From sequence record NZ_CP015380.1: a DNA stretch of 64,000 bases; one strand, written 5' to 3'. The notes beneath the pieces are model-generated. The model had not been told where the DNA came from. It saw nothing but the letters and a program-made list of their open reading frames with translations, and searched no databases. Below, one piece after another: positions 8,679 through 64,000 of the stretch (the first letter of the stretch is position 1; every line of letters begins with the position of its first letter). A program made the translations under genes and the position numbers. The stretch comes from a plasmid.

Positions 8679-8684
8679 GGGTAA

Positions 8685-9310: not shown

Positions 9311-9422
9311 GTGTGTCTCCTTTGGATATACGAGATGTATATCCAGTGTAGTTTACTTGTTGGATATGTCAATGGGATATCCCTCTTCTATTTAAGATAC
9401 AACAAACAAAAGGTTATCTGCG

Positions 9423-20806: not shown

Positions 20807-21871
20807 CTACTTTTTAAAAAGTATATTATTTACTGATAACTTTAAGACTTCAAACTGCTTAGCCAGCTCCAAACTTAGCCATATATAGCCATATACTGAA
20901 GCTTCATAATTATTAACATCAGTGTTATCATATAGCAAAGACTGATGGAGATTGCTTACACTATCACTTAGTTTTATATTAGTCATATCAATAGATGATA
21001 GCTGGCCAAGTTCTAATGTATCCTCTATATCCTGTAGTGCATTTACTGTCATATAAATAGACTCATGTAACTCTGATGAGTTAATTATTAAGAAATGACT
21101 TTTCCTTGATTCCCAGTGTGCATGGGCCTGTGACTCAAGAATACATATGATATTGGTGCATGTTTTTTGTATTAGTTCAAACTCCTCTTTACTTCTATGG
21201 CACTCCTTACATGCAGCTACAATCAAAGATCTTAAACTCACAATATCCAAAACAATTTTTTGGATTTCTTTATCTAAACAAGGCTGTTCAATTAGATTTC
21301 GGGAGTTGACTGTTTGATAAAGTTTAGAAAGTCGATTAATAATACATCCAAGTTTTAAACGCCAGTGAACGTATGCTCTCTGTGGATACAATCCAGTGAA
21401 AATTATAGCAAGAAAAGCGCCAAGTATTATATTAGCGCTGCGCCAAAAAGCCGTCATAACATCACCAGCAGGAGCACTAGATACAACGGATAATGTAATT
21501 CCAATTAGTAATGCTAAATATGGTTTTTTACCTAATGTTAGATAGCCACAAATGAACATACATATTGCACACCAAATTAACATATATGCAAATGAAAACA
21601 TCTCGATTTTTAGTGCTATAATTCCTAGTATTGCACCAGCAAGTGTTCCACCTATACGTTCTAGCGCTCTTGGCACCGCACTACCTAGGAATGAGATAGG
21701 CCCCATGACAACAACAAGTGTAATTAATGGCCATGTATGATCTGGTAGATTAGCAAAATGCAATATTACAAATGTTAAGACAAATGAAATTGAAATACGA
21801 ATGGCATGTACAAATCTGAAATGTTTATAAAGAAATTTCTCTCTTTTGGTTATTTTAACACATCCGCTCAC
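20807..21871 (-). CDS. FUSC/ArAE-like inner membrane protein
   Basis: 354 aa, with N-terminal multi-TM region then a soluble coiled C-terminal half. Very AT-rich. The family call is tentative. Confidence 0.35.
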   Translation of the reverse strand: MSGCVKITKREKFLYKHFRFVHAIRISISFVLTFVILHFANLPDHTWPLITLVVVMGPISFLGSAVPRALERIGGTLAGAILGIIALKIEMFSFAYMLIWCAICMFICGYLTLGKKPYLALLIGITLSVVSSAPAGDVMTAFWRSANIILGAFLAIIFTGLYPQRAYVHWRLKLGCIINRLSKLYQTVNSRNLIEQPCLDKEIQKIVLDIVSLRSLIVAACKECHRSKEEFELIQKTCTNIICILESQAHAHWESRKSHFLIINSSELHESIYMTVNALQDIEDTLELGQLSSIDMTNIKLSDSVSNLHQSLLYDNTDVNNYEASVYGYIWLSLELAKQFEVLKLSVNNILFKK

Positions 21872-22228
21872 TTAATCTCCAATTTCTATTAATAGAATAT
21901 ATGGAATTATTATATAAAAAACCAACCCACTCACAAACTATTAATTTTCTTATTATTGCAATCTAACAGTTAAAAACATTTAGTAATAAAGTTTTCGGGA
22001 TTCCGCGCTAGTGATTGAGTACCAATCCGAAATGTCGAATTTTTTAATGGGTGGTATCATTGACTTAAGAATAGAATGATATTTTAAAATTAAATATTGG
22101 TATTGTTAAAATCTAAAATATGAATGAGATCAGCTAAAAAAATAGCGTATACGCCCTTATTATCTAAAGACAAGGACCTGGCACAGGCCTGCAGGGATTT
22201 AGGTGGGACTGCTGTCCCATCGACTATG

Positions 22229-22994
22229 GGTAATGATTCCAATTAGTAGAACATGTGTTTTTCAATGAAGGCCCCGGTGACCTTTTCATGTAGTTCAATT
22301 GAGCGTGAGAAGCAGATTGTTTTTCGGGCCAAACGCTTGATGCGGGTTCTTAGCGTCAGATTGTTACGCTCAATACGCTGAGTGAATATTTTGCCAGCCA
22401 GATGCTTCTCTTTCGGCACTTCTCTGGCATAACCTCCCCAGTCATCGCTTGTTATCATGCCGATATTAAACGGAGTGAGCAGGGTCAGCAGTTCACGACA
22501 GGTATCATCTGTCCGTGGCCCGAATGTATAAGCCAGAATGCCACTTGTTCTGGTGTTGTATGCGTACCAAAGCCAGTGCTGTCGGGCTTTACTGCCGACA
22601 AAGCTCCATTGCTCATCGAGTTTGCAGATAAGCGCCACATCTGCATGAGCGACCGGAGAGGATGTTATTCGCTTCAGCGCGAGCTTTTTAAAGTATGAAT
22701 GACGGTATTAATGCCGATTTTGAGCGTCCTTGCAGTATCCCGGACGCCGACACCGTTGAATACCATTTAGGTAATTTGTCCTATGACGCCGAGCTTGCGG
22801 GCTTCATAAGTATAGATGAGCAGAAACACACGGGGCACTCACGACAGCGAAACCGGTCACGGCCTTTAGTAGGATTCTACCCATGACGGTAAACCTGAGC
22901 AGACTGACAATGGGGACAATGAACAGTAACGCTGGCCATGAGAAAACCTCAAAGCGGGCATTATATCTCAATTCAACTAATTAGATGCATAACC
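22229..22994 (-). mobile_element. IS1-family element, copy A (766 bp)
   Basis: IS1-like termini ggtaatgattccaattagtag at 22229 and ggttatgcatctaattagttg (minus strand) at 22994. InsB-like ORF 22243..22638. The insA region 22650..22920 is broken by two stops and a frameshift, identical to copy B. Confidence 0.8.
22243..22638 (-). CDS. insB: IS1 InsB-like transposase segment
   Basis: MALICKLDEQWSFVGSKARQHWLWYAYNTRTSG... parallels IS1 InsB ([31 protein letters not shown]...). Confidence 0.7.
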   Translation of the reverse strand: MALICKLDEQWSFVGSKARQHWLWYAYNTRTSGILAYTFGPRTDDTCRELLTLLTPFNIGMITSDDWGGYAREVPKEKHLAGKIFTQRIERNNLTLRTRIKRLARKTICFSRSIELHEKVTGAFIEKHMFY

Positions 22995-23275: not shown

Positions 23276-24730
23276 TTAGTACAAGCCTAAAACCTTCCAC
23301 CACATTAAGCCAAATATTAGGAATACTGCTTGATTAATGAGACTAATAATAAATCCTGTTCGCCACCACACACCGGTCGGAACATATCCGGCACCAAATA
23401 GAATAGGGCCACGAGCATGTGTGTATTGAGTCAGTGAACAGTAGAGGCTGCTGGAAAAGGCTAGCATAAGCGCAGTTGGTACAGTTGGAATACCTAAATT
23501 AATACTAACACTGAGGAATACCCCATATAGAGCAGCTATCTGAGCATTACCGCTGGCAAAGAAATAGTGTGTGTAAAAATATGCAGCATTTAATAATATT
23601 AGAATGATTATCCAGTTAGTTCCATGCATAGTATGACCAATGCTGTTACCTATAAGATTGCCAAACCAAGTTGTAAAGCCTAATCTTTTTAACTGGTTTG
23701 CCATCATAAGTAATGCTGCAAACCATATTAATGTATCCCAAGCATCCTTTTCATTTTTCACATCATCCCAATTGAGCACACCAGATAAAAGCAGAGCTGA
23801 TAGGCCAACAAATGCAGCAATCGTTGGATCGATACCCCATCTGCTACCAAAGATCCATAGCACTAACAACAATAGAACGGTTCCAATCATCATATATTCA
23901 CTGAGTGAAATCGAACCCATTTTCGATAATTCAGCACGTGCAATGCTCGGAGCATCAGGCGTTTTACGAATTTCTGGTTTTGTTAACCAATAAACCAAGG
24001 GAGGGATAAGAATCAAAGAAATTAGACATGGAATTATAGATGCCATTAACCATCCGCCCCAACTCAAGGTAACACCAGCGTTGGCTGCCAATTTTACCGC
24101 GAGCAGATTCCCAGTATAACCGGTCATGAACATGGCAGCAGTGACATCATTGACATTACCGATACAGGTAACTAAAAATGTTCCAATCTTACTTCGAGAA
24201 GCATCGTCAGGTCTCGAATCGAAACTGCGTGCTAGTGAATCTGCAATCGGATAAATGACACCACCGCATCGTGCCGTATTACTAGGCATAGCAGGAGATA
24301 AAATTAAGTCTGCAAAAGCTAAGCCGTACGCCAAACCTAACGTGCGCTTTCCCAGTAAACGAATCATTAACAGTGCAATACGCCGACCTAACCCCGTTTT
24401 TATGAATCCTCTAGCAATCATAAAAGCAACAACAATTAACCAAATTAACGAACTATTAAGATCACTTAACGCTATTTTAACGTTATCAGCAGAGCTTGTA
24501 TCTCCTGACGAATGCACCAAAGCAAAGACAGTTATTCCGATAAATCCAACTGCGCCAATAGGCAAAACTTTAACGACAATACACGCGATAGTGGCTATAA
24601 AAATAATTGTTGAATGCCAAGCGGGTACGCTCAATCCATTAGGTTGTCTTAGATACCAAAATATTGCAGCAATCATGGTTATGATAATTAAAGGTAGCCA
24701 TCGCACATTATTCTGCTGTTGACATGTCAT
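23276..24730 (-). CDS. DASS-family (CitT/TtdT-like) divalent-anion transporter
   Basis: A 484-aa polytopic membrane protein with two repeat halves and conserved DASS motifs (GN..AV-type hairpin regions). Adjacent to malic enzyme. Confidence 0.6.
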   Translation of the reverse strand: MTCQQQNNVRWLPLIIITMIAAIFWYLRQPNGLSVPAWHSTIIFIATIACIVVKVLPIGAVGFIGITVFALVHSSGDTSSADNVKIALSDLNSSLIWLIVVAFMIARGFIKTGLGRRIALLMIRLLGKRTLGLAYGLAFADLILSPAMPSNTARCGGVIYPIADSLARSFDSRPDDASRSKIGTFLVTCIGNVNDVTAAMFMTGYTGNLLAVKLAANAGVTLSWGGWLMASIIPCLISLILIPPLVYWLTKPEIRKTPDAPSIARAELSKMGSISLSEYMMIGTVLLLLVLWIFGSRWGIDPTIAAFVGLSALLLSGVLNWDDVKNEKDAWDTLIWFAALLMMANQLKRLGFTTWFGNLIGNSIGHTMHGTNWIIILILLNAAYFYTHYFFASGNAQIAALYGVFLSVSINLGIPTVPTALMLAFSSSLYCSLTQYTHARGPILFGAGYVPTGVWWRTGFIISLINQAVFLIFGLMWWKVLGLY

Positions 24731-24810
24731 AAGGCATCTCTTCTCATATGTATTATACGTTGGGCTCCCCCAACGTAATTTTTTTGGAAAACTTAATAAT
24801 AAATATTTAA

Positions 24811-26487
24811 TTAGAAAGAAATACGTTTGTAATTTTGATACTCAGGCTTCCAAAAGGTATTTTCTAATTCATCCTTAAGTTCAAAAACAGTCATTTGTTT
24901 TGCGACACCATCCTCTACGCCAGCTAATGCAACAGCAATGGCTATTTTTTTAGATATATCATGAATATTTGTCAATTCTGGTAATAGAGTACCCTCAGGA
25001 TTTTCAATCATTGGAGATGATTCAGCAAGAACCTTACTAGCAGCAAGGAACATATTTTCCGTCACTCGTTTTGCTTTAGAGATCAAAACACCAAGGCCAA
25101 GTCCAGGAAAAATATATGAGTTATTACATTGGGATATAATATATTTTTTTCCATTATAGATTACTGGTTGAAATGGACTACCTGTAGCAATAATTACATT
25201 TCCATCGGTCCACTCAATAATATCTTTTGGTACAGCCTCCACACGAGATGTAGGGTTAGATAGTGGGAGTATAATCGGCATTGTGAAACTGGAATACATG
25301 GACTTAACAACCTCCTCGGTAAATAACCCAGGTACACCTGAAACACCAATCAAAATTGATGGCTGGATATGGGTTACCAGTTCTGCTAGATCCTTCCCAT
25401 CAGGTGAGAATGAGAGGCTTTCCCTTGTGTGGGCTAATCTATATTGAAAGTCCGTTAGCATTGGGGTATCTTTTAATATCAAGCCATCTTTGTCGACTAG
25501 AAATATATGACTTCTGGCTACATCCTCATCTAACCCATCATTCCTAAGTGCTGCAATGATTAGTTCAGCAATACCGCAGCCAGCAGAGCCTGCTCCGACG
25601 AACATAATTCTCTGTTCAGATAGTCGTATGTTATTATGAAGGCATGCAGCAAGAATCGACCCTAACGCTACAGTTGCAGTTCCTTGAATATCGTCATTAA
25701 AACAACATAGTTTATCCTTATACATTTGAAGCAAAGGAGTTGCATGCTTTAGAGCAAAATCTTCAAACTGTAGCAGTACCCCTGGCCAACGACGCTCAAT
25801 AGAGGAGATAACCGTATCGATAAACTCATAATATTCAGAATCTAAAATACGCGGATGACGAGCTCCCATATATAGAGGGTTATTTAATAGTTCTTGGTTG
25901 TTTGTTCCGACATCTAGCATGATAGGCAAGCATTGGTGCGGAGGTATACCACCGCAAGCTGTATATAAAGATAATTTTCCGATAGGGATGCCCATGCCAC
26001 CGATGCCCTGATCACCTAAGCCAAGAATACGTTCACCATCGGTGATCACGATAATTTTTATTTCATCGCCAATAACATTACGAAGAATACTTTCAATTTT
26101 ATTTCTATCTTCCCAAGAAATAAATAGCCCTCGATTCTTACGCCATATTTCTGAAAAATGTTGGCAGGCATAGCCGACAGTTGGAGTGTAAATTAATGGG
26201 AGTGAGTCATCTATGTTTGATGTTATATAGTGATAAAATAGAACTTCATTAGTATCTTGTAGATTCCTCAGAAAAATATGCCTAGCCTCATCAGTAGTAA
26301 ACCGATTCAACTGAAATCGGATACGTTCACTTTGTTCATCTATCGATTCAACTACAGCAGGTACAAGTCCGTGAAGGTTGAATTCATCGCGCTCACTATT
26401 ACTAAACGCGCTTCCCTTATTAAATGAAGTACAGCTTAGCAATGATTGGCCTGAAAGATGAGTGTATCGCATTATAACTCCTACCAT
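24811..26487 (-). CDS. NAD(P)-dependent malic enzyme
   Basis: Malic-enzyme blocks are present: YTPTVG, FEDFA, FNDDIQGTATVAL and GAGSAGCGIAELI (Rossmann). The probable true start is at MRYTHL (26472). Confidence 0.8.
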   Translation of the reverse strand: MVGVIMRYTHLSGQSLLSCTSFNKGSAFSNSERDEFNLHGLVPAVVESIDEQSERIRFQLNRFTTDEARHIFLRNLQDTNEVLFYHYITSNIDDSLPLIYTPTVGYACQHFSEIWRKNRGLFISWEDRNKIESILRNVIGDEIKIIVITDGERILGLGDQGIGGMGIPIGKLSLYTACGGIPPHQCLPIMLDVGTNNQELLNNPLYMGARHPRILDSEYYEFIDTVISSIERRWPGVLLQFEDFALKHATPLLQMYKDKLCCFNDDIQGTATVALGSILAACLHNNIRLSEQRIMFVGAGSAGCGIAELIIAALRNDGLDEDVARSHIFLVDKDGLILKDTPMLTDFQYRLAHTRESLSFSPDGKDLAELVTHIQPSILIGVSGVPGLFTEEVVKSMYSSFTMPIILPLSNPTSRVEAVPKDIIEWTDGNVIIATGSPFQPVIYNGKKYIISQCNNSYIFPGLGLGVLISKAKRVTENMFLAASKVLAESSPMIENPEGTLLPELTNIHDISKKIAIAVALAGVEDGVAKQMTVFELKDELENTFWKPEYQNYKRISF

Positions 26488-28192: not shown

Positions 28193-31100
28193 ATGAAAAA
28201 ATCCCCCCCTCCTTTTACCTCTGAAATAAAAATAGGTAGAAAATATATCCGTGCCATTGCACACCTGAATATCGGTATGCAGGTTGTATTTCCTTTAGTG
28301 ATGTCATTTACCCCAGTGATGGTCGCAAGAGCTGAAACAGAAGACAAAAAATTCCTCACGACCAGCGCCCCAGTGACAACTATTCCCTATGTGTTACAAC
28401 CTGGGGATTCGATTGCTCAGATAGCAGAAAAATTTCACCTCACCGTGGCACAGCTTAAAACGCTGAATCAATATCGAACCTTTGCCCACGGCTTTGAATC
28501 AGTGCGCGCTGGGGATGAGATCGACGTTCCCGTTCAATCCAAAAGCATCGCCACTGATGCTGGCAGTGATGACAGCGCAGCACTGGCTCAGCGTGCCCAG
28601 CAGGCCGGTCACTTTTTACAAAACAATCCCAACAGCGACAGCGCGAAAGATTTGGCGCGCAGCCAAGCGTTGGGTGCAGCGAACAGCAAAGCGAATCAAG
28701 AAGTGGCCAGTTGGCTGAACGGCAAGGGAAAAGCGCGGGTAAAATTGGATGCCGACCGTGATTTCTCACTAAAAAACTCTGAGCTGGATGTGCTGTATCC
28801 GCTGTGGGAAAACAACGCCCATCAGGTGTTTACGCAGGGTTCGGTGCATCATACCGACAGCCGCAACCAGTCCAATCTGGGGTTGGGCTACCGCTATTTT
28901 GAAGGCACCTATTTGCTGGGCGCCAACACCTTCTTTGACCACGACTGGTCACGCAGCCACTCGCGTTTAGGCCTCGGTGCCGAATATCAGCGCGATTTCC
29001 TCAAAGTGGCCGCCAACGCCTACATGCGTCTGACTAACTGGAAAAATTCACCGGACTTCGATAACTACGAAGAACGCCCAGCCAACGGGTGGGACATTCG
29101 TACCGAAGGCTATTTACCTGCCTATCCGGGCATCGGCGGCAAGCTGGTGTATGAACAGTATTACGGCGACCGCGTCGGACTGTTTGGTAAAGATAATCAG
29201 CAAAAAGATCCGGTAGCGGTGACGGCCGGCGTTAACTATTCGCCTTTCCCGCTGATGAAGTTCAACGTCGATCACCGCATGGGTAAAAGCAATCAAAACG
29301 ACACCCGTTTCGGTATCGATCTGAACTATGTGTTTGGTGCGCCGTTAGGTCAGCAGTTGGATAGCAGCCTGTTGGCGGCGAGCCGCAGCTTGGCCGCGAA
29401 TCGTTACGACTTTGTCGAACGTAACAACAACATCGTGTTGGAATACCGCAAAAAAGACACCATCAGCCTCCGGTTGGCCTCGCAAATCAGCGGCTACAGC
29501 GGTGAAAGTAAATCGCTGGGCGTGTCGGTCAACAGCACCAACGGCGTTGAGCGCATTGAGTGGACCGCGCCAGAACTGCTGAGTCAGGGCGGGCAGATTG
29601 TTCAGGTTTCTGAACAGCAGTTCAACGTGATCATTCCTGAATATCAATACGGCAACGATGCCAACAACAGCTATGTGGTGAGCGGCGTTGCCTATGATAA
29701 ATCCGGCAATGCATCGCCAAAAGCGGAAAGCTTAGTGGTTGTTGCCTCGGCTGCGGTGAGTACGGTTAACAGCATGCTAACCCCGATGGAGCTTCAGTTA
29801 CCGAACGACGGTACCTCTACGGCTAAATTGACGCTGGTATTGCGTGATGCGAACAATCATCTCATCAGCGGTGTCGCCGATGACATCAAAACCACACTAA
29901 GTCCCGTGGGTCGCGGCCAGCCAGATGTCACGGTGAGTGCTTTTAGTGAAGACATGACCCGCATGGGCACCTATAACGCCACCGTCACGGCGGGCGAAAA
30001 TATGGGTGAATATAAAATTACGCCTGAAATCCATAATGCCAAACTTGCGTCAGCGACGCTGTATGTCGGCAGAGCACCGGTGATCAGCGGTTTAATCATG
30101 AGCGGCAAGCTGGCGTTAGGCGAGCAGCTATCGGGTCATTATCAGTTCGATAGTAACAGCGGCAATGCACAAGATGCCTCTCTTTACCAATGGGGCAATA
30201 AAGGGCAAACCACAGGGCTGAATGGCGCTGAGACCATCGTTACTTCAGGTAGCGTGCCGGGCTATACGCTGGTCGCCAGCGATGTTGGGCAGGTAAAAGA
30301 GCTGTCGGTTCAGGCGCGTAACGGGGTGGAAACCTTAGGGAATACGCTGACGGTCACTACGGCTCCGGGCGATAGCGGCAACAACACCGAAGGTGGCGGA
30401 GAAGGCGGTGCGATCGTGGATGAAACCGCAGCACCAAGCATCAGCGATGTGACGATAAGCGGTAAGCTTTCGCTAGGTGAAGCGCTGAGCGGTCGTTACA
30501 CCTTTGTGCCGCACACCGGCAACACAACCGATACGTCGGAATACCAGTGGGGCGTGGAAGGCACGACCGCAAGCGTAGTGGATAACGGCGGTGGAAAAGC
30601 GATCACTCAAAGCGGCGTGGTACCAAGCTATACCCTGCAAAGCAGCGATGCGGGTCAGGTGTTGGAAGTTTCTGTGCGGGCTAAAAACGCTGCCGATGTG
30701 TATGGCAACAGCGCCACGGTGACCACCGCACAAACAGGCGGCGGCAACAACACCGAGGGCGGTGGTGAAGGCGGCGTGATTGTTGATGAAACGGCAGCGC
30801 CAAGCATCAGCAGCGTGGCTATCAGCGGCAAGCTGGCGGTTGGCGAAGCACTGAGCGGCAGCTACACCTTTGATGCCAAGACCGGTAACCCAACGGATAC
30901 TTCCGAGTATCAGTGGGGCGCGAAAGGCTCAACCGCAAGCGTAGTGGAAAGCGGTGAAGGCAAAGCAATCAGCCAAAGCGGCGTAGTGCCAAGCTACACC
31001 TTACAAAGCAGCGATGCGGGTCAGGTATTGGAAGTTTCTGTGCGGGCTAAAAACGCTGCCGATGTGTATGGCAACAGCGCGACGGTGACCACCGCACAAA

Positions 31101-47713: not shown

Positions 47714-48479
47714 GGTAATGCATCTAGTTAATTGAATTGAGATATAATGCCCGCTTTGAGGTTTTCTCATGGCCAGCGTTACTGTTCATTGTCCCCATTG
47801 TCAGTCTGCTCAGGTTTACCGTCATGGGTAGAATCCTACTAAAGGCCGTGACCGGTTTCGCTGTCGTGAGTGCCCCGTGTGTTTCTGCTCATCTATACTT
47901 ATGAAGCCCGCAAGCTCGGCGTCATAGGACAAATTACCTAAATGGTATTCAACGGTGTCGGCGTCCGGGATACTGCAAGGACGCTCAAAATCGGCATTAA
48001 TACCGTCATTCATACTTTAAAAAGCTCGCGCTGAAGCGAATAACATCCTCTCCGGTCGCTCATGCAGATGTGGCGCTTATCTGCAAACTCGATGAGCAAT
48101 GGAGCTTTGTCGGCAGTAAAGCCCGACAGCACTGGCTTTGGTACGCATACAACACCAGAACAAGTGGCATTCTGGCTTATACATTCGGGCCACGGACAGA
48201 TGATACCTGTCGTGAACTGCTGACCCTGCTCACTCCGTTTAATATCGGCATGATAACAAGCGATGACTGGGGAGGTTATGCCAGAGAAGTGCCGAAAGAG
48301 AAGCATCTGGCTGGCAAAATATTCACTCAGCGTATTGAGCGTAACAATCTGACGCTAAGAACCCGCATCAAGCGTTTGGCCTGAAAAACAATCTGCTTCT
48401 CACGCTCAATTGAACTACATGAAAAGGTCACCGGGGCCTTCATTGAAAAACACATATTCTACTAATTGAAATCATTACC
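47714..48479 (+). mobile_element. IS1-family element, copy B (766 bp), inverted relative to copy A
   Basis: Internal ORFs identical to copy A. Termini ggtaatgcatctagttaattg at 47714 and ctactaattgaaatcattacc at 48479. Confidence 0.8.
48070..48384 (+). CDS. insB: IS1 InsB-like, with premature stop relative to copy A
   Basis: Same protein as 22243..22638 but ends ...RTRIKRLA-stop. Here ggcctgaaaa replaces ggcccgaaaa of copy A, a CGA-to-TGA change. Confidence 0.6.
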   Translation: MALICKLDEQWSFVGSKARQHWLWYAYNTRTSGILAYTFGPRTDDTCRELLTLLTPFNIGMITSDDWGGYAREVPKEKHLAGKIFTQRIERNNLTLRTRIKRLA

Positions 48480-48535
48480 CTTTTGCTGACTTACCTACGG
48501 TAATGCGACAGAGTCGATGAACACATATCTTTATT

Positions 48536-49846
48536 TTAAAGAATATTTTTTATTTTATCTGAGAGTGTGCTTTTAGGTATTTTTAACGCTTCAGCAGTTT
48601 TAGTTAAACTTCCTCTTTGACGATTTATTTCAAGAATAATGAGACTGCGTTCAAAATGTTCAACCATTTGAATAAGTGAATTAGCACTTTCATCAAATGA
48701 AGTGTTATGCTCATCCTTGATCCCAAGCACAAACCGCTCGGCATAATTTCGTAGTTCACGAATATTCCCAGGCCACTGAGCTGCCATTAACTTATGAAGC
48801 AATACAGCCTTAATTTCAGGTGCAGGACGATCAAAACATGCTGATGCTTGAGAAACAAAAAGATTGAAAAGCAAAGGAATATCTTCAATTCTATCACGTA
48901 GTGCTGGTAAATGAAGATTAATAACACTCAACCGGAAATGAAGATCAGCACGAAAAAGGTTATTTTCGCTAAGTTCAACTAAATTAGTTTTACTTGCACT
49001 AATAATACGAATATCAATAGGTATAGTTTTATTTGAGCCTAACCTCTCAAAACGCCGCTCTTGCAAAACACGCAAAAATTTTACTTGCATACTGAAAGGC
49101 ATACTCTCTACCTCATCGAGAAATAGCGTCCCCTTATCTGCATATTCCAGCTTCCCAATCCGGGTTTCCGTTGCACCGAGAAATGCACCAACCTCATGAC
49201 CAAAAATTTCGCTATCAAACAATGATTCAGGTAGTCCGCCACAATTAAGTGCAACGAAGGGGCCTGATCTACCACTAAGGTCGTGTATACAGCGCGCCGC
49301 AAGTTCCTTACCGGATCCTGTTTCGCCATAAATCAAAATATTTGTCGGCGTCATCGCAATATCTTTTATTGTCTCACGAACCTCAGTGATAGCCGATGAA
49401 TTCCCAATAAGACGGCTCTCAAGTGCGCTTGCATCAGCAAGTTTACGACGTAATTGGTTGTTTTCATAGATGAGACGTCGCTTATCAAGCGCTCGGCGTA
49501 CTATATTCAGCAATTGTTGAGGAGTGAAAGGTTTTTGCAAAAAATCATATGCACCATTATGCATAGCTTCTACGGCAGTTTCTACATCACCATGACCAGT
49601 AATAATAATGATAGGAACATCAGGATTTATGGCGTTGAACTCTTTCTGGAATGTAAGTCCACTCATGCCAGGTAGTTTCATGTCCGTCACAATTATACCG
49701 TGCTGCTTCAGCTCAGGCAGTAAAAAACGTGCGTCTTCGACAGAGCCAACTCCAATAGCACGTTTATTATCTAATTTCAGCGCCTGAACGCAGCCATGTT
49801 GAATATCTTTATCATCTTCAATGATTAAGATGTCTATATCGTTCAT
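48536..49846 (-). CDS. sigma-54-dependent response regulator (NtrC/DctD family)
   Basis: Receiver domain (ILIIEDDKD...DMKLPGMSG). AAA+ sigma-54 activator domain (GETGSGKELAARCIH, GAFLGA, ESLFDSEIFGHE). C-terminal HTH. The probable start is MNDIDIL at 49846, with an RBS ggag 8 nt upstream. Confidence 0.8.
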   Translation of the reverse strand: MNDIDILIIEDDKDIQHGCVQALKLDNKRAIGVGSVEDARFLLPELKQHGIIVTDMKLPGMSGLTFQKEFNAINPDVPIIIITGHGDVETAVEAMHNGAYDFLQKPFTPQQLLNIVRRALDKRRLIYENNQLRRKLADASALESRLIGNSSAITEVRETIKDIAMTPTNILIYGETGSGKELAARCIHDLSGRSGPFVALNCGGLPESLFDSEIFGHEVGAFLGATETRIGKLEYADKGTLFLDEVESMPFSMQVKFLRVLQERRFERLGSNKTIPIDIRIISASKTNLVELSENNLFRADLHFRLSVINLHLPALRDRIEDIPLLFNLFVSQASACFDRPAPEIKAVLLHKLMAAQWPGNIRELRNYAERFVLGIKDEHNTSFDESANSLIQMVEHFERSLIILEINRQRGSLTKTAEALKIPKSTLSDKIKNIL

Positions 49847-49859
49847 AAATGTTCTCCAA

Positions 49860-51692
49860 TTAATTATCTTTATGCAATGGTAGACGAATGATAAAGCGTG
49901 CCCCTGTTTCGACATTAACCGCTGATAATGAACCTTTAAAAGATTTTATGATATCAGCAGAAATAGCGAGGCCCAATCCTAATCCATGTGATGTTTTTGT
50001 TGTAAAAAAAGGTTCGAAAATATGTTCAATAACGTTGAGCGGAATGCCTGGGCCATTATCTTCAATTTCAATAACAGCGGAATCACCATCCTTATACCAT
50101 TTGGCCGTTATATTACCCGCCGAATTTTCATGCGAAATAGCATCAAGGGCATTACTGATTAAATTGACTAATACTTGCTCAAGTCTAAGGTTATTACATA
50201 AGCAATAAATCTCACTCGATGGTGGTATGCGAGTAAATGTAAAGTTATTTGTTTTAAATTTATGACTCAATAACAACATTGCATTGTCTATACTGATTTT
50301 TAACGAAACTGAGCTTATTGAATCATCACCGACACGAGAGAAAGTACGTAACTGATTGCTTAACTGACCGATAAAATCAACTAATCGAGCGATTCGCGCT
50401 AAATTTGATCGAGCTTCTTCCCATTCTCCTATTTCGATAAAACGCATCGTATTTGCTGAAATCATGCTAATTGCTGCTAATGGCTGATTAATTTCATGTG
50501 CTAATCCGGCAGAAAGCTGCCCAATAGCTGCGAGTTTTTCATTATGAAGCAACTCTTTTTGCATATTTCGAAGAATATTTTCACTATTGACTCGCTCTTT
50601 TATTTCCGCCTCAAGATTAATTGTTTTTTTTGCAAGTTCATACGTTCTTAGCATGACAAGATTTTCAAGCGATCTATTTTTTTTCTTTAATGCTTGCTGT
50701 TTTTCAATTTTCAGAGATAAAATTTTATTACGTTGGACAATTATTTTGAATAGTATTGCACAAAAAGCAAACGTAGCGATGATTCCCCCTATTTTAGGCC
50801 ATATTGCCTTAAAAATAGCACTCATGGGTAAAAGCCTTACTAATGTCATATTGATATCGCTAACATAACTCTCACTTGCCATATAGTACTTTTTGGCTAC
50901 GCTAACAATCCATGAGTCGTCATTTTCTTTTATTATATTCCTATAATCTAGCATAGGAATATCATTGACCCGATATCTCTGTTCTTCCGATATTTTCTGA
51001 TACTGTAACTTAGGTAATGGTGAGATTGAATGATAAAACCAATTCGGATTGCTAGAACTTGCGATAATGTCATGTTGATCTAAAAGAATTATCTCACCTT
51101 CACCGCCTCTAGTATTGATAAGATCATCTAAATTAACTTTAACTGAAATAGCCCCTATCTTCTCGCCATTCCAACTTATTGAGTTAACTAAAAAGTAACC
51201 TGGGATACCGTTTGAGACCCCAACACCAAAGTATCCAATAGTATTATCTGTATCTGCATTTATAAAGTAAGGTCTATGTGAAACATTGCAGCCAATAGCG
51301 CTATCGCATTGTCCAAAGTCACTTGATGAGATTATGTTACCGCCCAGGTCAATGATATAGATAGAGAGGGCGCCTGTGCGCACTTGGATAGACTTTAAAT
51401 ATCTATTCATTTCTTTTGTTTGCTTTTTAGCGTCTTTTTCTCTGAGTAAGTTAATTATTTTTTCGTCACGAGATAATGAGTACGGCATAAATTCGTAGCG
51501 TTGTACACTTAAATTCAGTGCTAAGCCTATCTCATTGAGTTGTTGCCTCAAGAGTATTTTTTGGTTTTTAACCTCGTTTACAATAACATAGCAACTATAA
51601 ATCAGCACCAAAGAAAATATGATAACGATTAAGACAAACTGTTGTAGCTTAGGGTCACGCAAAATCTGGTTGTGCTGATGATGTTGTGGCAT
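49860..51692 (-). CDS. sensor histidine kinase with periplasmic Cache-like domain (DctB-like)
   Basis: An N-terminal TM helix, a ~270-aa periplasmic domain and a second TM helix. H-box LSAGLAHEINQPLAAI, N-box NLISNALDA, G-boxes DNGPGIP and GLGLGLAIS. The stop lies 14 nt upstream of the regulator start. Confidence 0.75.
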   Translation of the reverse strand: MPQHHQHNQILRDPKLQQFVLIVIIFSLVLIYSCYVIVNEVKNQKILLRQQLNEIGLALNLSVQRYEFMPYSLSRDEKIINLLREKDAKKQTKEMNRYLKSIQVRTGALSIYIIDLGGNIISSSDFGQCDSAIGCNVSHRPYFINADTDNTIGYFGVGVSNGIPGYFLVNSISWNGEKIGAISVKVNLDDLINTRGGEGEIILLDQHDIIASSSNPNWFYHSISPLPKLQYQKISEEQRYRVNDIPMLDYRNIIKENDDSWIVSVAKKYYMASESYVSDINMTLVRLLPMSAIFKAIWPKIGGIIATFAFCAILFKIIVQRNKILSLKIEKQQALKKKNRSLENLVMLRTYELAKKTINLEAEIKERVNSENILRNMQKELLHNEKLAAIGQLSAGLAHEINQPLAAISMISANTMRFIEIGEWEEARSNLARIARLVDFIGQLSNQLRTFSRVGDDSISSVSLKISIDNAMLLLSHKFKTNNFTFTRIPPSSEIYCLCNNLRLEQVLVNLISNALDAISHENSAGNITAKWYKDGDSAVIEIEDNGPGIPLNVIEHIFEPFFTTKTSHGLGLGLAISADIIKSFKGSLSAVNVETGARFIIRLPLHKDN

Positions 51693-52129
51693 TTTGTTTA
51701 TCTCGCAGAGTCACTGACGTCCAACATAACAGCATGAAGTTAAAACACATAAAGGTAATCTAGTCAATAATAACACATCGATGTTAAACAGAATACTAAC
51801 GGATATTTAGTCATTACCCATAAAATTAATGCGTGTATTTGTCTTTGGTCAGAAATAAAAAATAAATAAGATATGAAATCCGAATTACCGTAGATAATAA
51901 AACCAATTATTTCGGATTTTCGAAAAAGTTATTTTAATAGTGGTTTTTAAATTTAATAACATCTAATTAAATTGACTCAGATCATAAATTAAAGCACGTC
52001 TTACTGAATATACTCAGCGCCGTTGAAGATCACTGAGTTAATGTTCGCATATGTACTTGTAAAAAATACTCTATGGAAATGATATTTTTTTAATTTATAA
52101 CTGCGTTCTCTTTTTAAGAGGGTTGTCGT

Positions 52130-53818
52130 GTGTTTCTAATTCATTCAATTTTTCAAATGTCACCTGAGATAGCGCTATTCCTTTCTCTTGCTATTGGTAC
52201 ATGGATAGGGAAATTCAAATTCGGTAAATTTCAGCTTGGCGGCGTTGCGGGTGCACTTGTAATATCTGTCGCTCTAAGCCAATTCGGTGTAACCATTGAT
52301 GACGGCGTTAAAGCTGTTCTTTTTGCTCTATTTATTTATGCCGTTGGCTTTGAAAGCGGGCCTCAGTTCTTTAAATCTTTAGGCTTAAAGTCTATAAGAG
52401 AAATCATACTTGCTATTGTCATGGCTGTTAGTGGGCTTATCACCGTTGTCATTCTTGCAAGAATGTATGACCTAGATAAGGGCACAGCAGCAGGCATTGC
52501 AGCCGGTGCATTGACGCAATCAGCTATTATTGGAACAGCTAGTTCTGCCATCGAAAAGCTAGGCCTTTCACCTGAATTATCCCAGCATTTACAGGCTAAT
52601 GTTGCTATCGGATATGCTGTCACCTACATATTTGGCTCGTTGGGCGCGATTATTATATGTGTCAATATTCTCCCTTGGTTTATGCGCCGAGGTTTACGTG
52701 AGGATGCCATAAAAGCAGAAGCAACACTATTAAATGGCGCTAGAAATTATGGATTTGGCGAAACGCCTGCACTTCCTAATATTGTAGGCCGAGTTTTCAA
52801 AGTCACATCTGCTGCTGGGTTGACAATTTCTCAACTAGAGAAATCTGCGACTGAAGGAAAGATTACCGTTGAAAGGCTTAAACGCTCAGGTGATATCATT
52901 GGTTTAAGTGGTGAAACGACCTTAGAGCTGGGCGATATTATCCTCATTGTTGGTCGTCGCAGTAGCGTAGTCCAGTTGGATGAAATAGTTGGCCCTGAAA
53001 CTAAAGATAATGATGGGATGGAAGTCGTTATTTCCACCCGAGATATCATTATTACCAATAAAGCCTATACGAATAAAAAGATTGCATACATTTCCAGCAC
53101 AGCCACTCAGGAGCTACGTCACGGTATTTATTTCCTACAGCTCAAGCGCGGGGAAGGTTCACTTCCTTTAGTCGGAGAAACGCTCATCAAGTCTGGTGAT
53201 GTTGTCACTGTTTATGGCGTGAATGAAGATATCCAGCGCTTTGCAAAAGAGGTTGGTCCTGTTATCAGCGTTAGTGAAAAAACAGATCTCTTATTCCATG
53301 GGATTGGTGTTTCTGTTGGCCTGCTCATTGGTCTCGCCGTCGTTCATATTGGCTCTATTCCTCTCACATTAGGAGCCGGTGGTGGCGCGCTATTTTCTGG
53401 GCTTATTTTTGGCTGGTACCGTTCACGCCATATGGTGATGGGAAATATGCCAACGCCAGCATCTACGCTGCTAAAAGACTTAGGGCTTGCTGGATTTGTT
53501 GCTGTAGTAGGACTTCAGTCTGGTCAACAAGCCATTAGTACTATTGCCCAAAGTGGAATATCCATCTTTATGATCGGTGTCGCAGTCACCATCATTCCGC
53601 TATTTATTACCATGCTTGTTGGTCGATACATTTTGCATTACGACAATACCGCGATATTTGCAGGCGCCCTCTCAGGAACAAGGAGTGCAAATCCTGCTTT
53701 TGGCGAGGTATTAGAAAAATCCGGTAATTCTGTACCAACAGTTTCTTTTGCTATCACATACGCGCTTGCAAATGTATTCCTTACATTGCTTGGGCCATTA
53801 GTTGTTGCTTTCGTTTAA
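52130..53818 (+). CDS. aspT: AAE-family aspartate:alanine antiporter (AspT/YidE/YbjL architecture with two TrkA-C domains)
   Basis: 562 aa. Two homologous membrane halves are separated by paired RCK_C/TrkA-C domains (GKITVERLKRSGDIIGLSG...GDIILIVGRRSSV and ...GETLIKSGDVVTVYGVNEDI). Lies immediately upstream of asdA. Confidence 0.65.
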   Translation: MFLIHSIFQMSPEIALFLSLAIGTWIGKFKFGKFQLGGVAGALVISVALSQFGVTIDDGVKAVLFALFIYAVGFESGPQFFKSLGLKSIREIILAIVMAVSGLITVVILARMYDLDKGTAAGIAAGALTQSAIIGTASSAIEKLGLSPELSQHLQANVAIGYAVTYIFGSLGAIIICVNILPWFMRRGLREDAIKAEATLLNGARNYGFGETPALPNIVGRVFKVTSAAGLTISQLEKSATEGKITVERLKRSGDIIGLSGETTLELGDIILIVGRRSSVVQLDEIVGPETKDNDGMEVVISTRDIIITNKAYTNKKIAYISSTATQELRHGIYFLQLKRGEGSLPLVGETLIKSGDVVTVYGVNEDIQRFAKEVGPVISVSEKTDLLFHGIGVSVGLLIGLAVVHIGSIPLTLGAGGGALFSGLIFGWYRSRHMVMGNMPTPASTLLKDLGLAGFVAVVGLQSGQQAISTIAQSGISIFMIGVAVTIIPLFITMLVGRYILHYDNTAIFAGALSGTRSANPAFGEVLEKSGNSVPTVSFAITYALANVFLTLLGPLVVAFV

Positions 53819-55423
<1,605 letters not shown>

Positions 55424-55443
55424 TTCTGTTTAATAAGTAAAAT

Positions 55444-55466
55444 AGCACCTCCAGTGGAGGTGCTAT
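55444..55466 (+). terminator. hairpin downstream of asdA
   Basis: tagcacctccagtggaggtgcta is a perfect 9-bp stem with a 5-nt loop, 20 nt after the asdA stop. The U-tract is weak. Confidence 0.4.
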
Positions 55467-55999
55467 TCGCCAATGCCGTAATATACCTAACCATGCATCT
55501 ACCGAAAAAATCGCAAAAGTCGATTTATGCATAGCGTTAAAAGTGTAGTAATATCGAGGAAATGGCCATACTATACATTATTAAATATGTGTCAACTTCC
55601 TGATTGCTTTGATATCACCCTCCCCTCATTGTAACAATTCAGATTAGTATTAGCATAACACTGCATACCTCTAAACTTAGAGTATACTACTGGGCGAATT
55701 TATATAACTATATATGGATAAGTAATATCCTATAATCAATAATTTTCTTGGAGCTGGTTATTTCTCATGAGGTATAGCTTTCATCTACTAGATATGAATA
55801 GATGTGACTTAACCTATTCAAAGAATCAATAAAACCTTTCAAGGTAAATTTTGGCCTGATGGTAAATATTATGGTTTAAGTAAATTGAGTCATTTGATTT
55901 AAAGTGTCATCTATTTCACACAACAAGACATATAATATCATCTTATTGTATGGAATATTTTATTTATCACTATTAGTGGATATTTATGCTGAATAACTT

Positions 56000-59626: not shown

Positions 59627-59892
59627 ACATGGCTAGTGATACCTATCAGTATCAGTTTTTATTTGTACACTCGCGAAGACAATGGAAAAAAATAAGGCGT
59701 GGGTCTATAAAATAGCCCAATTTATCTAACCTTATCAACAATGTCGACAATGAGCTTTCTCTTTATTCGCCTCTGTTTCAGCATCAGGCACTAATTTTCC
59801 AGAGCAAGGTTGCGAACTAACTGTTGCGCGGATATAAGGCCATAGCAGTCGTAGCAATTACGATTATTTGTTTAGCTTCTGTATTATAAAAT

Positions 59893-61830
59893 GGCGATTT
59901 CAGCCTGAAATTCTTGTTAAAAATGAAGATAATTCATAGAGATAAGTATGAAATTAGTATGGCGAATTTCTGATGCGTATCTAGGATAACAGTCCAACTA
60001 TTTTTCATGCCGGATTACAGGAGACTGAACATAATAAAGCCTCAAATAAGGGCAAATTGTCACACTCGATAGAATCGGATGAACAATCAGGTATCTGTCC
60101 GGTATCGCCACGAACATAGATCCTACATAAATTATTTAAGGGCAATTTGCCACAGTAAATCCAGCCAATGTCTCAACGCTTTATTTTTATCGCTAGACAA
60201 GCGTTGTATGGACGGCAATCTTCAGTGATTGATGAGTAATATCGCGACAATATAAGCACCAGTGCTGCATCAAACGTAAATCTAGCTAAATAGAGGAGCT
60301 AGATACCAATAGACTCCAGCTGTAAACTATTGGCGATTTCAGCCTGAAATTCTTGTTAAAAATGATGATAATTCATAGAGATAAGTATGAAATTGGTATG
60401 GCGAATTTCTGATGCGTATCTAGGATAACAGTCCAACTATTTTTCATGCCGGATTACAGGAGACTGAACATAATAAAGCCTCAAATAAGGGCAAATTGTC
60501 ACACTCGATAGAATCGGATGAACAATCAGGTATCTGTCCGGTATCGCCACGAACATAGATCCTACATAAATTATTTAAGGGCAATTTGTCACAGTAAACC
60601 CATCTAATGTCTCAACGCTTTATTTTTATCGCTAGACAAGCGTTGTATGGACGGCAATCTTCAGTGATTGATGAGTAATATCGCGACAGTATAAGCACCA
60701 GTGCTGCATCAAACGTAAATCTAGCCAAATAGAGGAGCTAGATACCAATAGACTCCAGCTGTAAACTATTGGCGATTTCAGCCTGAAATTCTTGTTAAAA
60801 ATGATGATAATTCATAGAGATAAGTATGAAATTGGTATGGCGAATTTCTGATGCGTATATAGGATAACAGTCCAACTATTTTTCATACCGGATTACAGGA
60901 GACTGAACATAATAAAGCCTCAAATAAGGGCAAATTGTCACACTCGATAGAATCGGATGAACAATCAGGTATCTGTTCGGTATCGCCACGAACATAGATC
61001 CTACATAAATTATTTAAGGGCAATTTGTCACAGTAAACCCATCTAATGTCTCAACGCTTTATTTTTATCGCTAGACAAGCGTTGTATGGACGGCAATCTT
61101 CAGTGATTGATGAGTAATATCGCGACAATATAAGCACCAGTGCTGCATCAAACGTAAATCTAGCCAAATAGAGGAGCTATATACCAATAGACTCCAGCTG
61201 TAAACTATTGGCGATTTCAGCCTGAAATTCTTGTTAAAAATGATGATAATTCATAGAGATAAGTATGAAATTGGTATGGCGAATTTCTGATGCGTATCTA
61301 GGATAACAGTCCAACTATTTTTCATGCCGGATTACAGGAGACTGAACATAATAAAGCCTCAAATAAGGGCAAATTGTCACACTCGATAGAATCGGATGAA
61401 CAATCAGGTATCTGTCCGGTATCGCCACGAACATAGATCCTACATAAATTATTTAAGGGCAATTTGTCACAGTGAATCCAGCCAATGTCTCAACGCTTTA
61501 TTTTTATCGCTAGACAAGCGTTGTATGGACGGCAATCTTCAGTGATTGATGAGTAATATCGCGACAGTATAAGCACCAGTGCTGCATCAAACGTAAATCT
61601 AGCCAAATAGAGGAGCTAGATACCAATAGACTCCAGCTGTAAACTATTGGCGATTTCAGCCTGAAATTCTTGTTAAAAATGAAGATAATTCATAGAGATA
61701 AGTATGAAATTAGTATGGCGAATTTCTGATGCGTATCTAGGATAACAGTCCAACTATTTTTCATGCCGGATTACAGGAGACTGAACATAATAAAGCCTCA
61801 AATAAGGGCAAATTGTCACACTTAGTAGAA
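59893..61830. repeat. 4.4 tandem copies of a 439-bp unit carrying iteron-like 19-mers (expanded incC-like region)
   Basis: Unit starts (ggcgatttcagcctgaaattcttg) at 59893, 60332, 60771, 61210 and 61649, an exact 439-bp period. Each unit contains taagggcaaattgtcacactcg and taagggcaatttg(t/c)cacagtaaa, matching the F RepE iteron core TGTGACAAATTGCCCTTAA in reverse complement (F iteron consensus recalled from memory). Confidence 0.9.
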
Positions 61831-62149
61831 TCGGATACACAATAGGACATTGAATATCGTTTTTGTCTTCGTACTGCTACATCTTTCCAGAGGTTTTTTC
61901 ATCACAGAATATTCGTTCACCGCTTTAACATTTTGATTCAAACATCGTTTGGGACATCATTCATAATGATATCGCGATCAGCAACGTGAAGAGGCAAAAT
62001 CACTAACTATATTGCTCCCTGCACCTGTGGCACCAGCCGTTGAGAAAATAGGGCTTAGTATAACTGAGGTTGTATTCGGCAGGAGAAACTGCTTCAAGAG
62101 TCAATTTGGCCAGATGGGGAATGGAGAGAACAATGGTATTTAATTGTAA

Positions 62150-62990: not shown

Positions 62991-63827
62991 TTAGCATGAG
63001 GGTAGATGGCCTCTCCCTAACACACAGGGTGGAAGTTGTGTAGGTAAACTGAATAAAGCTAGGGGAGTAGCGCAATACTTACAAAAGACGTTGGTCATCA
63101 ATGAAAGTGAAAACGATGTGAGTGGTCTGTCGACCTTTTTTTTCTCAGAATAAGATACTTTCATTGGAGTGCGAGAGTTGATCTCTTCAACAACAGGTTG
63201 TAAGAAGCGACGTCGAAAATCGGGCATACGTGTATAGCTTTGCGGCAGTTGATAACGTTCCATCATCCAACTGATAGTCAACGACAATACACCAGAGCCA
63301 TCAGGCTTTCGATACTGGCATAGTGATTCGTAAAGTCTCATAGCATATGGGCTAGTGATCTCTTTTGTCTCGCTAAGTCTAAATTGTGTAAAACGATTTT
63401 GTAAACCGATAAAGTAAGGGATCAGGAAAGGATTGATATGAACGCTGTACGTCCCTCTAGCAGGGCTATAAGCACGTTTAATGAACCACGGGAAGGATTC
63501 ATAGCCTTTTTCACCGCCAGCGTCCTCTTCAGGTCGATAGACGGTTATTTCCTTGCCTGCAAACCCTTTTAGAGCTTGACGTATATCCTTACTGGCCTCT
63601 GCCGATGTTAGGCCAAAAGTACTGGCGTATTGTGATACCTGAATTTCACAGGTGCCATCATGTTCAGTCAAGGAGCCATCATGACGCCGAATTTGTTCCA
63701 CAAATAGATAGAGCATACGTTTCTGATCGCGAGTTAGGCTATATGCGGCTTCCGTCAGCTCATTGGACTGAACAATGCGCGGACTATTCTTTCTTCGTTT
63801 TGTATTTATGAGTGGAGTATCAGTCAT
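62991..63827 (-). CDS. repE: RepFIA replication initiator RepE (Rep_3 family)
   Basis: [47 protein letters not shown]...[10 protein letters not shown]...[52 protein letters not shown]...[17 protein letters not shown] is near-colinear with F RepE recalled from memory. The C-terminus is ~30 aa longer than F RepE. The six-frame ORF extends to 63887; the start at 63827 is inferred from homology. Confidence 0.9.
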
Positions 63828-63840
63828 GACTTCGCCCGTG

Positions 63841-64000
63841 GAAATGTGACAATACATAAGGTTGTCACTGTATAGTATCCCTGTCAATAACCCTGTGAAT
63901 TATTGAATAAGGAAAGGGTGATTTGTCACAGTATTTAGGGCATTTTGTCACACTTCAACCACTTAATTGAGGGCAAAAAGTCACATATAAAGGGTAATTT
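63841..64000. promoter_or_regulatory. ori2-like iteron cluster and repE operator/promoter
   Basis: The inverted repeat gtgacaatacataaggttgtcac (an operator-like half-iteron IR) is followed by at least three direct iteron-like motifs (tttgtcacagtatttagggca, ttttgtcacacttcaacc, aaagtcacatataaagggtaa) running to the window edge. Confidence 0.65.

Follow-up and report, generated by a model that had tools for sequence, protein, structure and literature searches.

A divergent aspartate decarboxylation module

The stretch of plasmid DNA analysed here (64,000 nucleotides of NZ_CP015380.1, hereafter the window) contains a self-contained 6.9-kb unit, the asp module (48531-55467), which adjoins an IS1 element on an F-like plasmid of Hafnia alvei. 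Its four open reading frames form two divergent gene pairs: a response regulator and a sensor kinase on the minus strand, and aspT and asdA on the plus strand. All four lie where an earlier reading of this DNA (the original prediction) had placed them. That reading put aspT-asdA under a sigma-54 activator. On balance, the sequence evidence leads us to favor another arrangement, in which an enhancer-binding protein no longer tied to sigma-54 controls a sigma-70, FNR-type promoter in response to aspartate.

The module is a discrete unit: the stretch homologous at the nucleotide level to another H. alvei locus (L008) ends at 48531 and at 55467. The four genes are conserved together in nine distinct loci, which cover six genera (Hafnia, Rahnella, Serratia, Enterobacter, Pantoea, and Klebsiella) and one metagenome contig. 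These loci include H. alvei L008, Rahnella bruchi, R. bonaserana, Serratia fonticola, a Klebsiella pneumoniae contig, the metagenome contig, a 122-kb Enterobacter cancerogenus plasmid, and a Pantoea agglomerans megaplasmid.

The first gene of the plus-strand pair, aspT (52130..53818), begins with GTG behind an AGAGGG ribosome-binding site and encodes an aspartate:alanine antiporter of the AAEx family. Its product scores 736.4 bits against TIGR03802 (cut-off 546.95), with residues 4-562 on model positions 3-562. In Pfam, two Asp-Al_Ex membrane repeats flank two TrkA_C domains, and residues 10-560 match the solved AspT of Tetragenococcus halophilus (8XW5, 8Y1X, and 9VEB; E = 3e-55).

The second gene, asdA (53837..55423), encodes a pyridoxal phosphate-dependent L-aspartate 4-(beta-)decarboxylase, with scores of 809.8 bits against NF006755 (cut-off 321) and 784.8 bits against TIGR03801 (cut-off 435). 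The original prediction had named both proteins correctly, and all three curated models score above their cut-offs. It had also raised the possibility that the decarboxylase is a generic aminotransferase. Generic aminotransferase models cover only residues ~130-350, whereas residues 3-527 align gaplessly to residues 4-528 of a solved AsdA (2ZY2, E = 8e-231). This alignment takes in the N-terminal extension that ordinary class I aminotransferases lack, with a 12-residue segment conserved. Because the match runs end to end and includes the N-terminal region, we rule out a generic aminotransferase.

By sequence, the two proteins are a bona fide antiporter/decarboxylase pair, and we infer their functional role by homology. 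In Tetragenococcus, electrogenic aspartate/alanine exchange by AspT together with decarboxylation by AspD generates a proton-motive force (PMC13631041). In the Hafnia module, AspT would likewise import L-aspartate in exchange for L-alanine, and AsdA would decarboxylate aspartate to alanine and CO2. The cycle would generate a proton-motive force and use up a proton. The two-protein cycle is that of T. halophilus, with AspT matching its counterpart over the full length, and records from Enterococcus and Lactiplantibacillus show that further lactic acid bacteria have asdA on plasmids. Unlike the T. halophilus genes, those in the window are ordered aspT then asdA, reside in an enterobacterial host, and have a divergent two-component system of their own and a complex promoter.

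The regulatory genes do not accompany every asdA. A search of genome contigs with AsdA returned seven loci, two from Rahnella with the two-component system and five from Variovorax without it. In the Variovorax loci (L003-L007, ~6400-11560), asdA is 61-62% identical to that of the window, no DctB-like two-component system is linked, and two tandem AAEx genes, 57% and 36% identical to the window AspT, precede asdA. An aspT-asdA pair on a Chimaeribacter plasmid (L096) has no linked two-component system, no dyads, and no FNR-like box. The arrangement is therefore specific to one clade and not a general property of asdA.

The kinase gene (49860..51692, minus strand) encodes a protein with a first transmembrane segment, a periplasmic double-Cache domain of ~250 residues, a second transmembrane segment, and HisKA and HATPase_c domains. 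The hydrophobic segments lie at residues ~19-38 and ~300-319. HisKA and HATPase_c are found by Pfam, and dCache_1 is matched at E = 1.2e-7, below the Pfam gathering cut-off. Residues 50-278 match the sensor domain of Vibrio cholerae DctB (3BY9, E = 3e-26), and the periplasmic domain also matches that of Sinorhizobium meliloti DctB (3E4O/2ZBB, E = 1e-12). These structural matches agree with the earlier description of a DctB-like, Cache-domain kinase. The protein is 99% identical to an H. alvei kinase (P0001).

By sequence similarity, we place the two-component system in the DctB/AauS/MifS-DctD/AauR/MifR group (described in PMC8694187), equidistant from proteins labelled DctBD and AauSR. AauS or AauR is the JGI label on some members of the kinase and regulator families. 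Identity to AauS is ~33% for the kinase and identity to AauR ~56% for the regulator, with DctB- and DctD-labelled proteins equally close. Pseudomonas AauS/AauR likewise pairs a double-Cache kinase with an NtrC-family regulator, and its likely ligand class includes aspartate. From the cargo, the ligand of the window kinase is most likely external aspartate or a C4-dicarboxylate.

The regulator gene (48536..49846, minus strand) lies in an open reading frame of 48536..49915. We place its start at M24 (49846), the likely true start, since this codon follows a GGAG ribosome-binding site, avoids overlap with the kinase gene, and is also the start of an identical H. alvei protein (P0121, 100% identity). 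The product combines a receiver, an AAA+ domain, and a Fis-type helix-turn-helix (Response_reg, PF00072; Sigma54_activat, PF00158, 205.6 bits; AAA_lid_14, PF25601; HTH_8, PF02954).

Tandem dyads, a TTGA box, and a predicted -10 hexamer upstream of aspT

The intergenic region between the divergent pairs has a GC content of 29%. The original prediction singled out a 9-bp inverted repeat within it as a possible upstream activating sequence. The repeat exists, with arms AAATCCGAA at 51876-51884 and TTCGGATTT at 51911-51919. Its spacer is 26 nt and not 28, and the span given earlier (51875..51925) was a few bases off (51876..51919 for AAATCCGAA-N26-TTCGGATTT). Taken alone, the repeat is of marginal significance. 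When this AT-rich region is shuffled, 18% of the shuffles contain a perfect 9-bp inverted repeat whose arms are at most 40 nt apart, and 2.5% do so when at least three G/C are required in the arm. What makes the repeat significant is that related loci conserve it.

Those loci also change how the repeat is read. Each orthologous locus shows two separate 14-17-bp palindromes, so we reject a single long palindrome in favor of a tandem operator, in which dyads 1 and 2 each contribute their left half as one arm of the repeat. Dyad 1 (TCCGAATTACCGTA, 51879..51892) is degenerate, aligns with dyad 1 of the orthologues, and is centered at ~-135 relative to the predicted transcription start. Dyad 2 (TTCGGATTTTCGAA, 51911..51924), centered at ~-103, is one mismatch from TTCGG-N4-CCGAA, the consensus that DNase footprinting defined for the AauR operator of Pseudomonas putida (PMC7962211). 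S. fonticola and P. agglomerans have perfect copies of this consensus. The two dyads are present in 9/9 aspT-linked loci, 32±1 bp apart and with zero to two mismatches from the AauR consensus. The suggested activator site therefore falls within a conserved operator, as two tandem dyads instead of one long inverted repeat.

Aligned across the aspT-linked loci, the intergenic region has a mean column identity of 63%, and the invariant columns are the dyads, a box downstream of them, and a -10 block. The dyads, as predicted binding sites in tandem ~100-140 bp from the predicted start, have an enhancer-type geometry. By reading, an IHF-consensus site is present in the AT-rich spacer of some loci and is absent from the window.

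A conventional enhancer would be expected to act on a -24/-12 promoter. A scan of 51693..52129 for TGGCAC-N5-TTGCW with up to two mismatches gave no match, and GG-N10-GC occurs on neither strand of this interval, which extends to a consensus scan the earlier observation, made by eye, that no convincing -24/-12 element is present. Scans of both strands in all aspT-linked intergenic regions were also negative, with a best consensus match of at most 7/11 in the nine loci. Weak GG...GC matches (6-8/11) turn up in Rahnella, Serratia, and E. cancerogenus, but their position is not conserved. The proposal of sigma-54-driven aspT expression thus finds no promoter to act on, either in the window or in its orthologues, an outcome that the original prediction itself had named as grounds for refutation.

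What is conserved has a different organization. The most conserved intergenic block is a box of the FNR/CRP family (TTGACTCAGATCAT, 51972..51985, plus strand), centered at ~-42.5. The pattern TTGAT-N4-ATCAx is found with at most two mismatches in 9/9 loci, its center 60-61 bp downstream of that of dyad 2. The window box has two mismatches to TTGAT-N4-ATCAA and the orthologues one or two, and every locus keeps TTGA as the left half. All nine loci also have a -10-like hexamer (TATACT, TATAAT, or TAAAAT) at a distance of exactly 23 nt downstream of the box; in the window it is TATACT at 52009..52014 (plus strand). The composite of box and hexamer arises in 0.4-1.8% of shuffles per region. We predict a sigma-70 promoter here with no -35 element, a start near 52021, and a leader of ~110 nt. 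A generic sigma-70 consensus scan upstream of aspT found no -35/-10 pair, as is expected of the activator-dependent promoter without a -35 that we propose.

The position of the box would suit FNR. Sites at -41.5/-42.5 are the classic class II FNR position. CRP or another CRP/FNR-family protein could bind TTGAT-N4-ATCAx instead, and the module would then be regulated by carbon source and not by oxygen. The sequences recognized by CRP and by FNR overlap, and the right half of the box contains TCAC in L008 and reads ATCAT or ATCAG elsewhere, not ATCAA. We nevertheless consider this quite unlikely: the left half is the FNR-type TTGA in 9/9 loci and not the GTGA that CRP requires, the box sits at the class II FNR position, and anaerobic induction suits a fermentative decarboxylation that generates a proton-motive force.

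The spacing between operator and box bears on a second alternative, in which the sigma-70 promoter is still the target but the two-component system is no direct co-activator of it. The system would instead relieve H-NS-type silencing, serve as a repressor, or mainly autoregulate the kinase/regulator operon. AT-rich DNA such as this intergenic region (29% GC) is typical of H-NS targets, and the dyads lie roughly midway between the divergent operons. Repression by an atypical enhancer-binding protein also has a precedent in Brucella NtrX (PMC6158489). The dyad-to-box spacing, however, is kept at 60-61 bp across genera even though the intervening sequence diverges, and the regulator retains its ATPase motifs. 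Such strict spacing favors a stereospecific interaction within the promoter complex over generic anti-silencing, and we regard anti-silencing, repression, or autoregulation as unlikely.

The predicted leader itself gave no sign of a further element. A search of Rfam with 51600-52300 (E <= 1) found no matches, and a riboswitch or attenuator in the 110-nt leader was dropped as a candidate when its folding proved no better than that of shuffles (z = 0.36).

L1 loop of the regulator and sister malic-enzyme modules

The L1 loop sets the regulator apart from canonical sigma-54 activators. Its residues 220-225 read GAFLGA instead of GAFTGA (codons GGT GCA TTT CTC GGT GCA), while Walker A (GETGSGKE) and Walker B (LFLDE) are intact. 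The change is clade-wide. Regulators linked to aspT carry GAFLGA in Hafnia and Rahnella, GAFPGA in Enterobacter, Pantoea, Klebsiella, some Serratia, and the metagenome contig, and GVFPGA in S. fonticola. The normally invariant FGHE just upstream of L1 is relaxed in this clade to FGF, FGC, or FGY, and both Walker motifs are kept.

Neighbor joining groups the aspT-linked regulators in one clade inside a large GAFSGA/GSFSGA family, which comprises the regulators linked to malic enzyme and ~75 more distant members. Still more distant regulators have GAFTGA or GAYTGA. The L1 codons are compatible with single-nucleotide steps from Ser (TCN) through Pro (CCN) to Leu (CTN).

In PspF, F85 and T86 of GAFTGA contact region I of sigma-54, and bulky replacements of T86 abolish the interaction (PMC3467059). 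The change from Thr to Pro inactivated Bradyrhizobium japonicum NifA, and GAFSGA is regarded as tolerated (PMC4641369). Homologues with an altered GAFTGA, such as TyrR, HupR, HsfA, PhhR, NtrX, and VpsR, work with sigma-70 (PMC6158489). In the literature searched, we found no mention of GAFLGA in an enhancer-binding protein.

Five sister loci (L012, L014, L049, L101, and L102) carry the same kinase/regulator family with a different cargo, a malic enzyme and an AAEx transporter encoded co-directionally upstream of the kinase and regulator. The loci are from Pantoea (among them P. stewartii), Tatumella-like assemblies, and metagenome contigs. Their enzyme belongs to the malic or malolactic class, and the conserved operon looks like a malate decarboxylation/antiport module. 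The sister regulators (58-72% identity) have GAFSGA. All five loci have a sigma-54 promoter matching the consensus at 10-11/11 positions (TGGCACGGTAAATGCT, TGGTACGCCGGTTGCA, TGGCACGGCAGTTGCT, TGGCACACTCCATGCA, and TGGCACGCGCAATGCA), 61-122 nt before the first gene. An equivalent dyad pair lies at ~-96 and ~-128, with the same dyad spacing. The sister and asp modules thus share the regulatory family, the dyads and their spacing, and the logic of a decarboxylase plus an AAEx transporter, and they differ in gene orientation, enzyme, promoter, and L1 motif. In one sister locus only, L101, a perfect FNR box (TTGATTTAGATCAA, ~345-358) lies 73 bp upstream of dyad 1, possibly a sign of FNR input older than the promoter switch.

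From the first eight loci we formed the hypothesis that aspT-linked systems have no sigma-54 promoter, an FNR-type box, and no L1 Thr/Ser, and that malic-enzyme-linked systems have a sigma-54 promoter and GAFSGA. This was then checked on loci fetched afterwards: L015 and L049 from a metagenome scan, L095 from a plasmid collection, and L100, L101, and L102, which were chosen only by their L1 motif. The predictions held in 6/6 of these loci, including the 60-bp and 23-nt spacings, and the cargo type of L101 and L102 was predicted correctly from the L1 motif alone.

We think it quite possible, though we hold the view tentatively, that one enterobacterial NtrC-family clade has recently left sigma-54. 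The dyads and their distance to the promoter would have stayed as they were, an FNR-type class II sigma-70 promoter would have taken the place of the -24/-12 element, and Pro or Leu that of the L1 Ser/Thr. The sister malic-enzyme modules would still show the ancestral combination of GAFSGA and a sigma-54 promoter. An independent regulator lineage in Rouxiella (L013, 7280-11169) also has GAFPGA, together with a DE-to-DK change in Walker B and a pair of dyads that precede the kinase gene by 286 and 318 bp. No sigma-54 promoter scoring at least 9/11 was found in that locus. It adds little as a second case of transition, because no decarboxylase or transporter cargo could be identified next to it.

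The module can be compared with several characterized systems. AauR acts with RpoN at a -24/-12 promoter (PMC7962211), whereas the window has no such promoter and its regulator has GAFLGA. The rhizobial and Vibrio DctB/DctD systems have the same domain architecture and tandem upstream sites, and V. cholerae DctB is the best solved match to the sensor. Unlike them, the window encodes decarboxylation and antiport instead of dctA, with no sigma-54 promoter and an altered L1 loop. A set of NtrC-like proteins with a non-canonical GAFTGA (Rhodobacter capsulatus NtrC and HupR, Escherichia coli TyrR, P. putida PhhR, Myxococcus xanthus HsfA, Brucella abortus NtrX, and V. cholerae VpsR) acts with housekeeping RNA polymerase (PMC6158489).

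The original prediction described the regulator as a sigma-54 activator. The NtrC-family architecture is as described, but both the L1 Thr/Ser and a cognate -24/-12 promoter, the two defining marks of sigma-54 dependence, are missing, and we therefore do not class it as a sigma-54-dependent activator. It appears to resemble more closely the atypical, sigma-70-dependent proteins. The window clade differs from these in that its change is a single residue, recent, and accompanied by intact ATPase motifs, in that a GAFSGA sister clade is still on sigma-54 promoters, and in the coupling to an FNR-type class II promoter proposed here. The literature searched held no description of such a minimal switch from a GAFSGA clade to an FNR-type promoter.

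In the favored picture, the kinase would sense external aspartate or a C4-dicarboxylate and phosphorylate the NtrC-family regulator, which would bind the two AauR-like dyads at ~-103 and ~-135. The target would be the sigma-70 promoter with TATACT, no -35, and a start near 52021, with an FNR-family protein at ~-42.5. Having no Thr/Ser to contact sigma-54, the regulator would serve as a sigma-54-independent co-activator, as does R. capsulatus NtrC, which acts from distal tandem sites. Since activator dyads and an FNR-type box are both present, the operon would need both aspartate and anaerobiosis, and would be expressed with aspartate present and oxygen absent. Such conditions make sense for a decarboxylation that conserves energy during fermentation. 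The anaerobic C4-dicarboxylate genes of E. coli, under combined DcuSR and FNR control, provide a parallel.

Alternatively, the system could be a conventional one, in which the regulator at the dyads activates a cryptic or highly divergent sigma-54 promoter of aspT-asdA. Its AAA+ Sigma54_activat domain is complete, the tandem dyads ~100-135 bp upstream are a classic enhancer geometry, the closest sister modules are by sequence clearly sigma-54 driven, and databases annotate these regulators as sigma-54-dependent. The window intergenic region, however, has no GG-N10-GC on either strand, the nine loci share no conserved candidate, the contact residue is Leu or Pro throughout the clade (with Thr-to-Pro inactivating in NifA), and the conserved element is a promoter of different organization. 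We judge a conventional sigma-54 system improbable.

Several points weigh against sigma-70, FNR-type control, of which sigma-54 independence and FNR itself are the weakest links. The promoter account is deduced from sequence throughout, and it would require an activator at -103/-135 to help a sigma-70/FNR promoter. The regulator keeps Walker A/B and the full Sigma54_activat domain (205 bits), and some naturally occurring enhancer-binding proteins whose motif is unusual are nevertheless predicted to depend on sigma-54, as with GVATGV in Desulfovibrio vulgaris (PMC4641369). The association of motif loss with promoter type represents essentially one evolutionary transition. The window box alone is not significant, as two-mismatch matches are common (68 found, 54 expected), and its right half is ATCAT, ATCAC, or ATCAG instead of ATCAA in most loci, which would allow CRP or another protein at the box.

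The cargo chemistry, the AspT/AspD-AsdA cycle, is known. What is new is a small and recent change in the regulator, together with a surviving sister module of the ancestral type. If sigma-70, FNR-type control is correct, the annotation 'sigma-54-dependent' would be wrong for a whole regulator clade, and one loop residue plus a promoter swap behind an unchanged enhancer would amount to a minimal, recent rewiring from sigma-54 to sigma-70. The known atypical proteins TyrR, VpsR, and R. capsulatus NtrC have diverged too far for such a step to be visible in them. The two modules would then allow an enhancer-binding protein to be compared, in nature, before and after a switch of sigma factor.

Plasmid context and neighboring cargo

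The original prediction also described the module as unusual cargo in an F-like plasmid context. The context is real, because traI, traD, traX, finO, and repA of the H. alvei plasmid NZ_CP050151 are matched at 7.5-14 kb of the window with 92% identity. The same local gene order is found on an H. alvei assembly contig (L097). The cargo is uncommon, with asdA on 70 of 72,556 plasmid records, mostly megaplasmids. It is not unique, since the E. cancerogenus and P. agglomerans plasmids carry the whole four-gene module; plasmid carriage is rare, not singular. A proton-motive, acid-consuming aspartate decarboxylation cycle thus circulates on conjugative plasmids of Enterobacterales. A near-identity DNA search with 48400-55600 found no match in the plasmid and E. 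coli collections, and the homologues were found via their proteins.

A full-length IS1 (47714..48480, minus strand) abuts the 3′ end of the regulator gene, ~50 bp from the start of the L008 homology. A second copy (22228-22994), in which Pfam finds DDE_Tnp_IS1, is inverted relative to the first and 99.2% identical to it over 767 bp. The inverted pair brackets a 24.7-kb segment, and the asp module begins ~50 bp beyond its right-hand member. This layout gives a hint that IS1 took part in assembling the cargo region. At the other end, a GC-rich hairpin (55440..55468) begins 17 nt after the asdA stop codon and coincides with the end of the conserved module. Its function as a terminator is uncertain, as no T-run follows on the plus strand.

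The two H. alvei alleles, in the window and in L008, have diverged unevenly. Nucleotide identity is ~93% in aspT-asdA and 67-85% (in 300-nt windows) in the kinase, regulator, and intergenic region, and the divergence switches sharply at the aspT start codon. Residues 251-300 of the kinase are 52% identical in amino acid sequence. This mosaic pattern could reflect recombination or diversifying selection on the sensor.

The window encodes a second decarboxylase-plus-transporter pair (23276-26487, minus strand), made up of a malic enzyme with Malic_M and malic domains (24811-26487), 38% identical to the enzyme of the Pantoea module, followed by a DASS/Na_sulph_symp transporter (23276-24730). The sigma-54 consensus scan listed no match just upstream of this pair. 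A FUSC-family protein is encoded nearby at 20807-21871.

Further along, a 2180-residue inverse autotransporter of the intimin/invasin type (28193-34735, plus strand) has LysM, IAT_beta, and Big_2 domains. Its gene contains about ten 366-bp tandem repeats (30375-33987; 81-90% identity). Here the GC content reaches 57-58% and there is a strong AT skew of 0.25-0.29, unlike the rest of the window.

An MscS-like channel (35657-36811) and a 281-residue sigma-70-family sigma factor with regions 1.2, 2, and 4 (38194-39039) are followed by a cyclopropane fatty acid synthase (CMAS). The synthase is split by an apparent frameshift into two overlapping open reading frames (39475-40077 and 40029-40652), and is intact, at 387 residues, in the related contig L097. 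A perfect FNR box (TTGATTCCGATCAA, 39355-39368) lies just upstream of these frames, and asdA of S. fonticola (L009) also has a CMAS neighbor. Together, the channel, sigma factor, fatty acid synthase, and decarboxylation modules look like a stress or acid-fitness cargo set.

Near the right-hand end of the window, 4.4 tandem copies of a 439-bp unit (59892-61843; 98% identity) are followed by weaker copies to ~62775. These degenerate copies run toward a gene for a Rep3-family initiator (62991-63887, minus strand), and the repeats may be an unusually long iteron or the incompatibility region of a second replicon.

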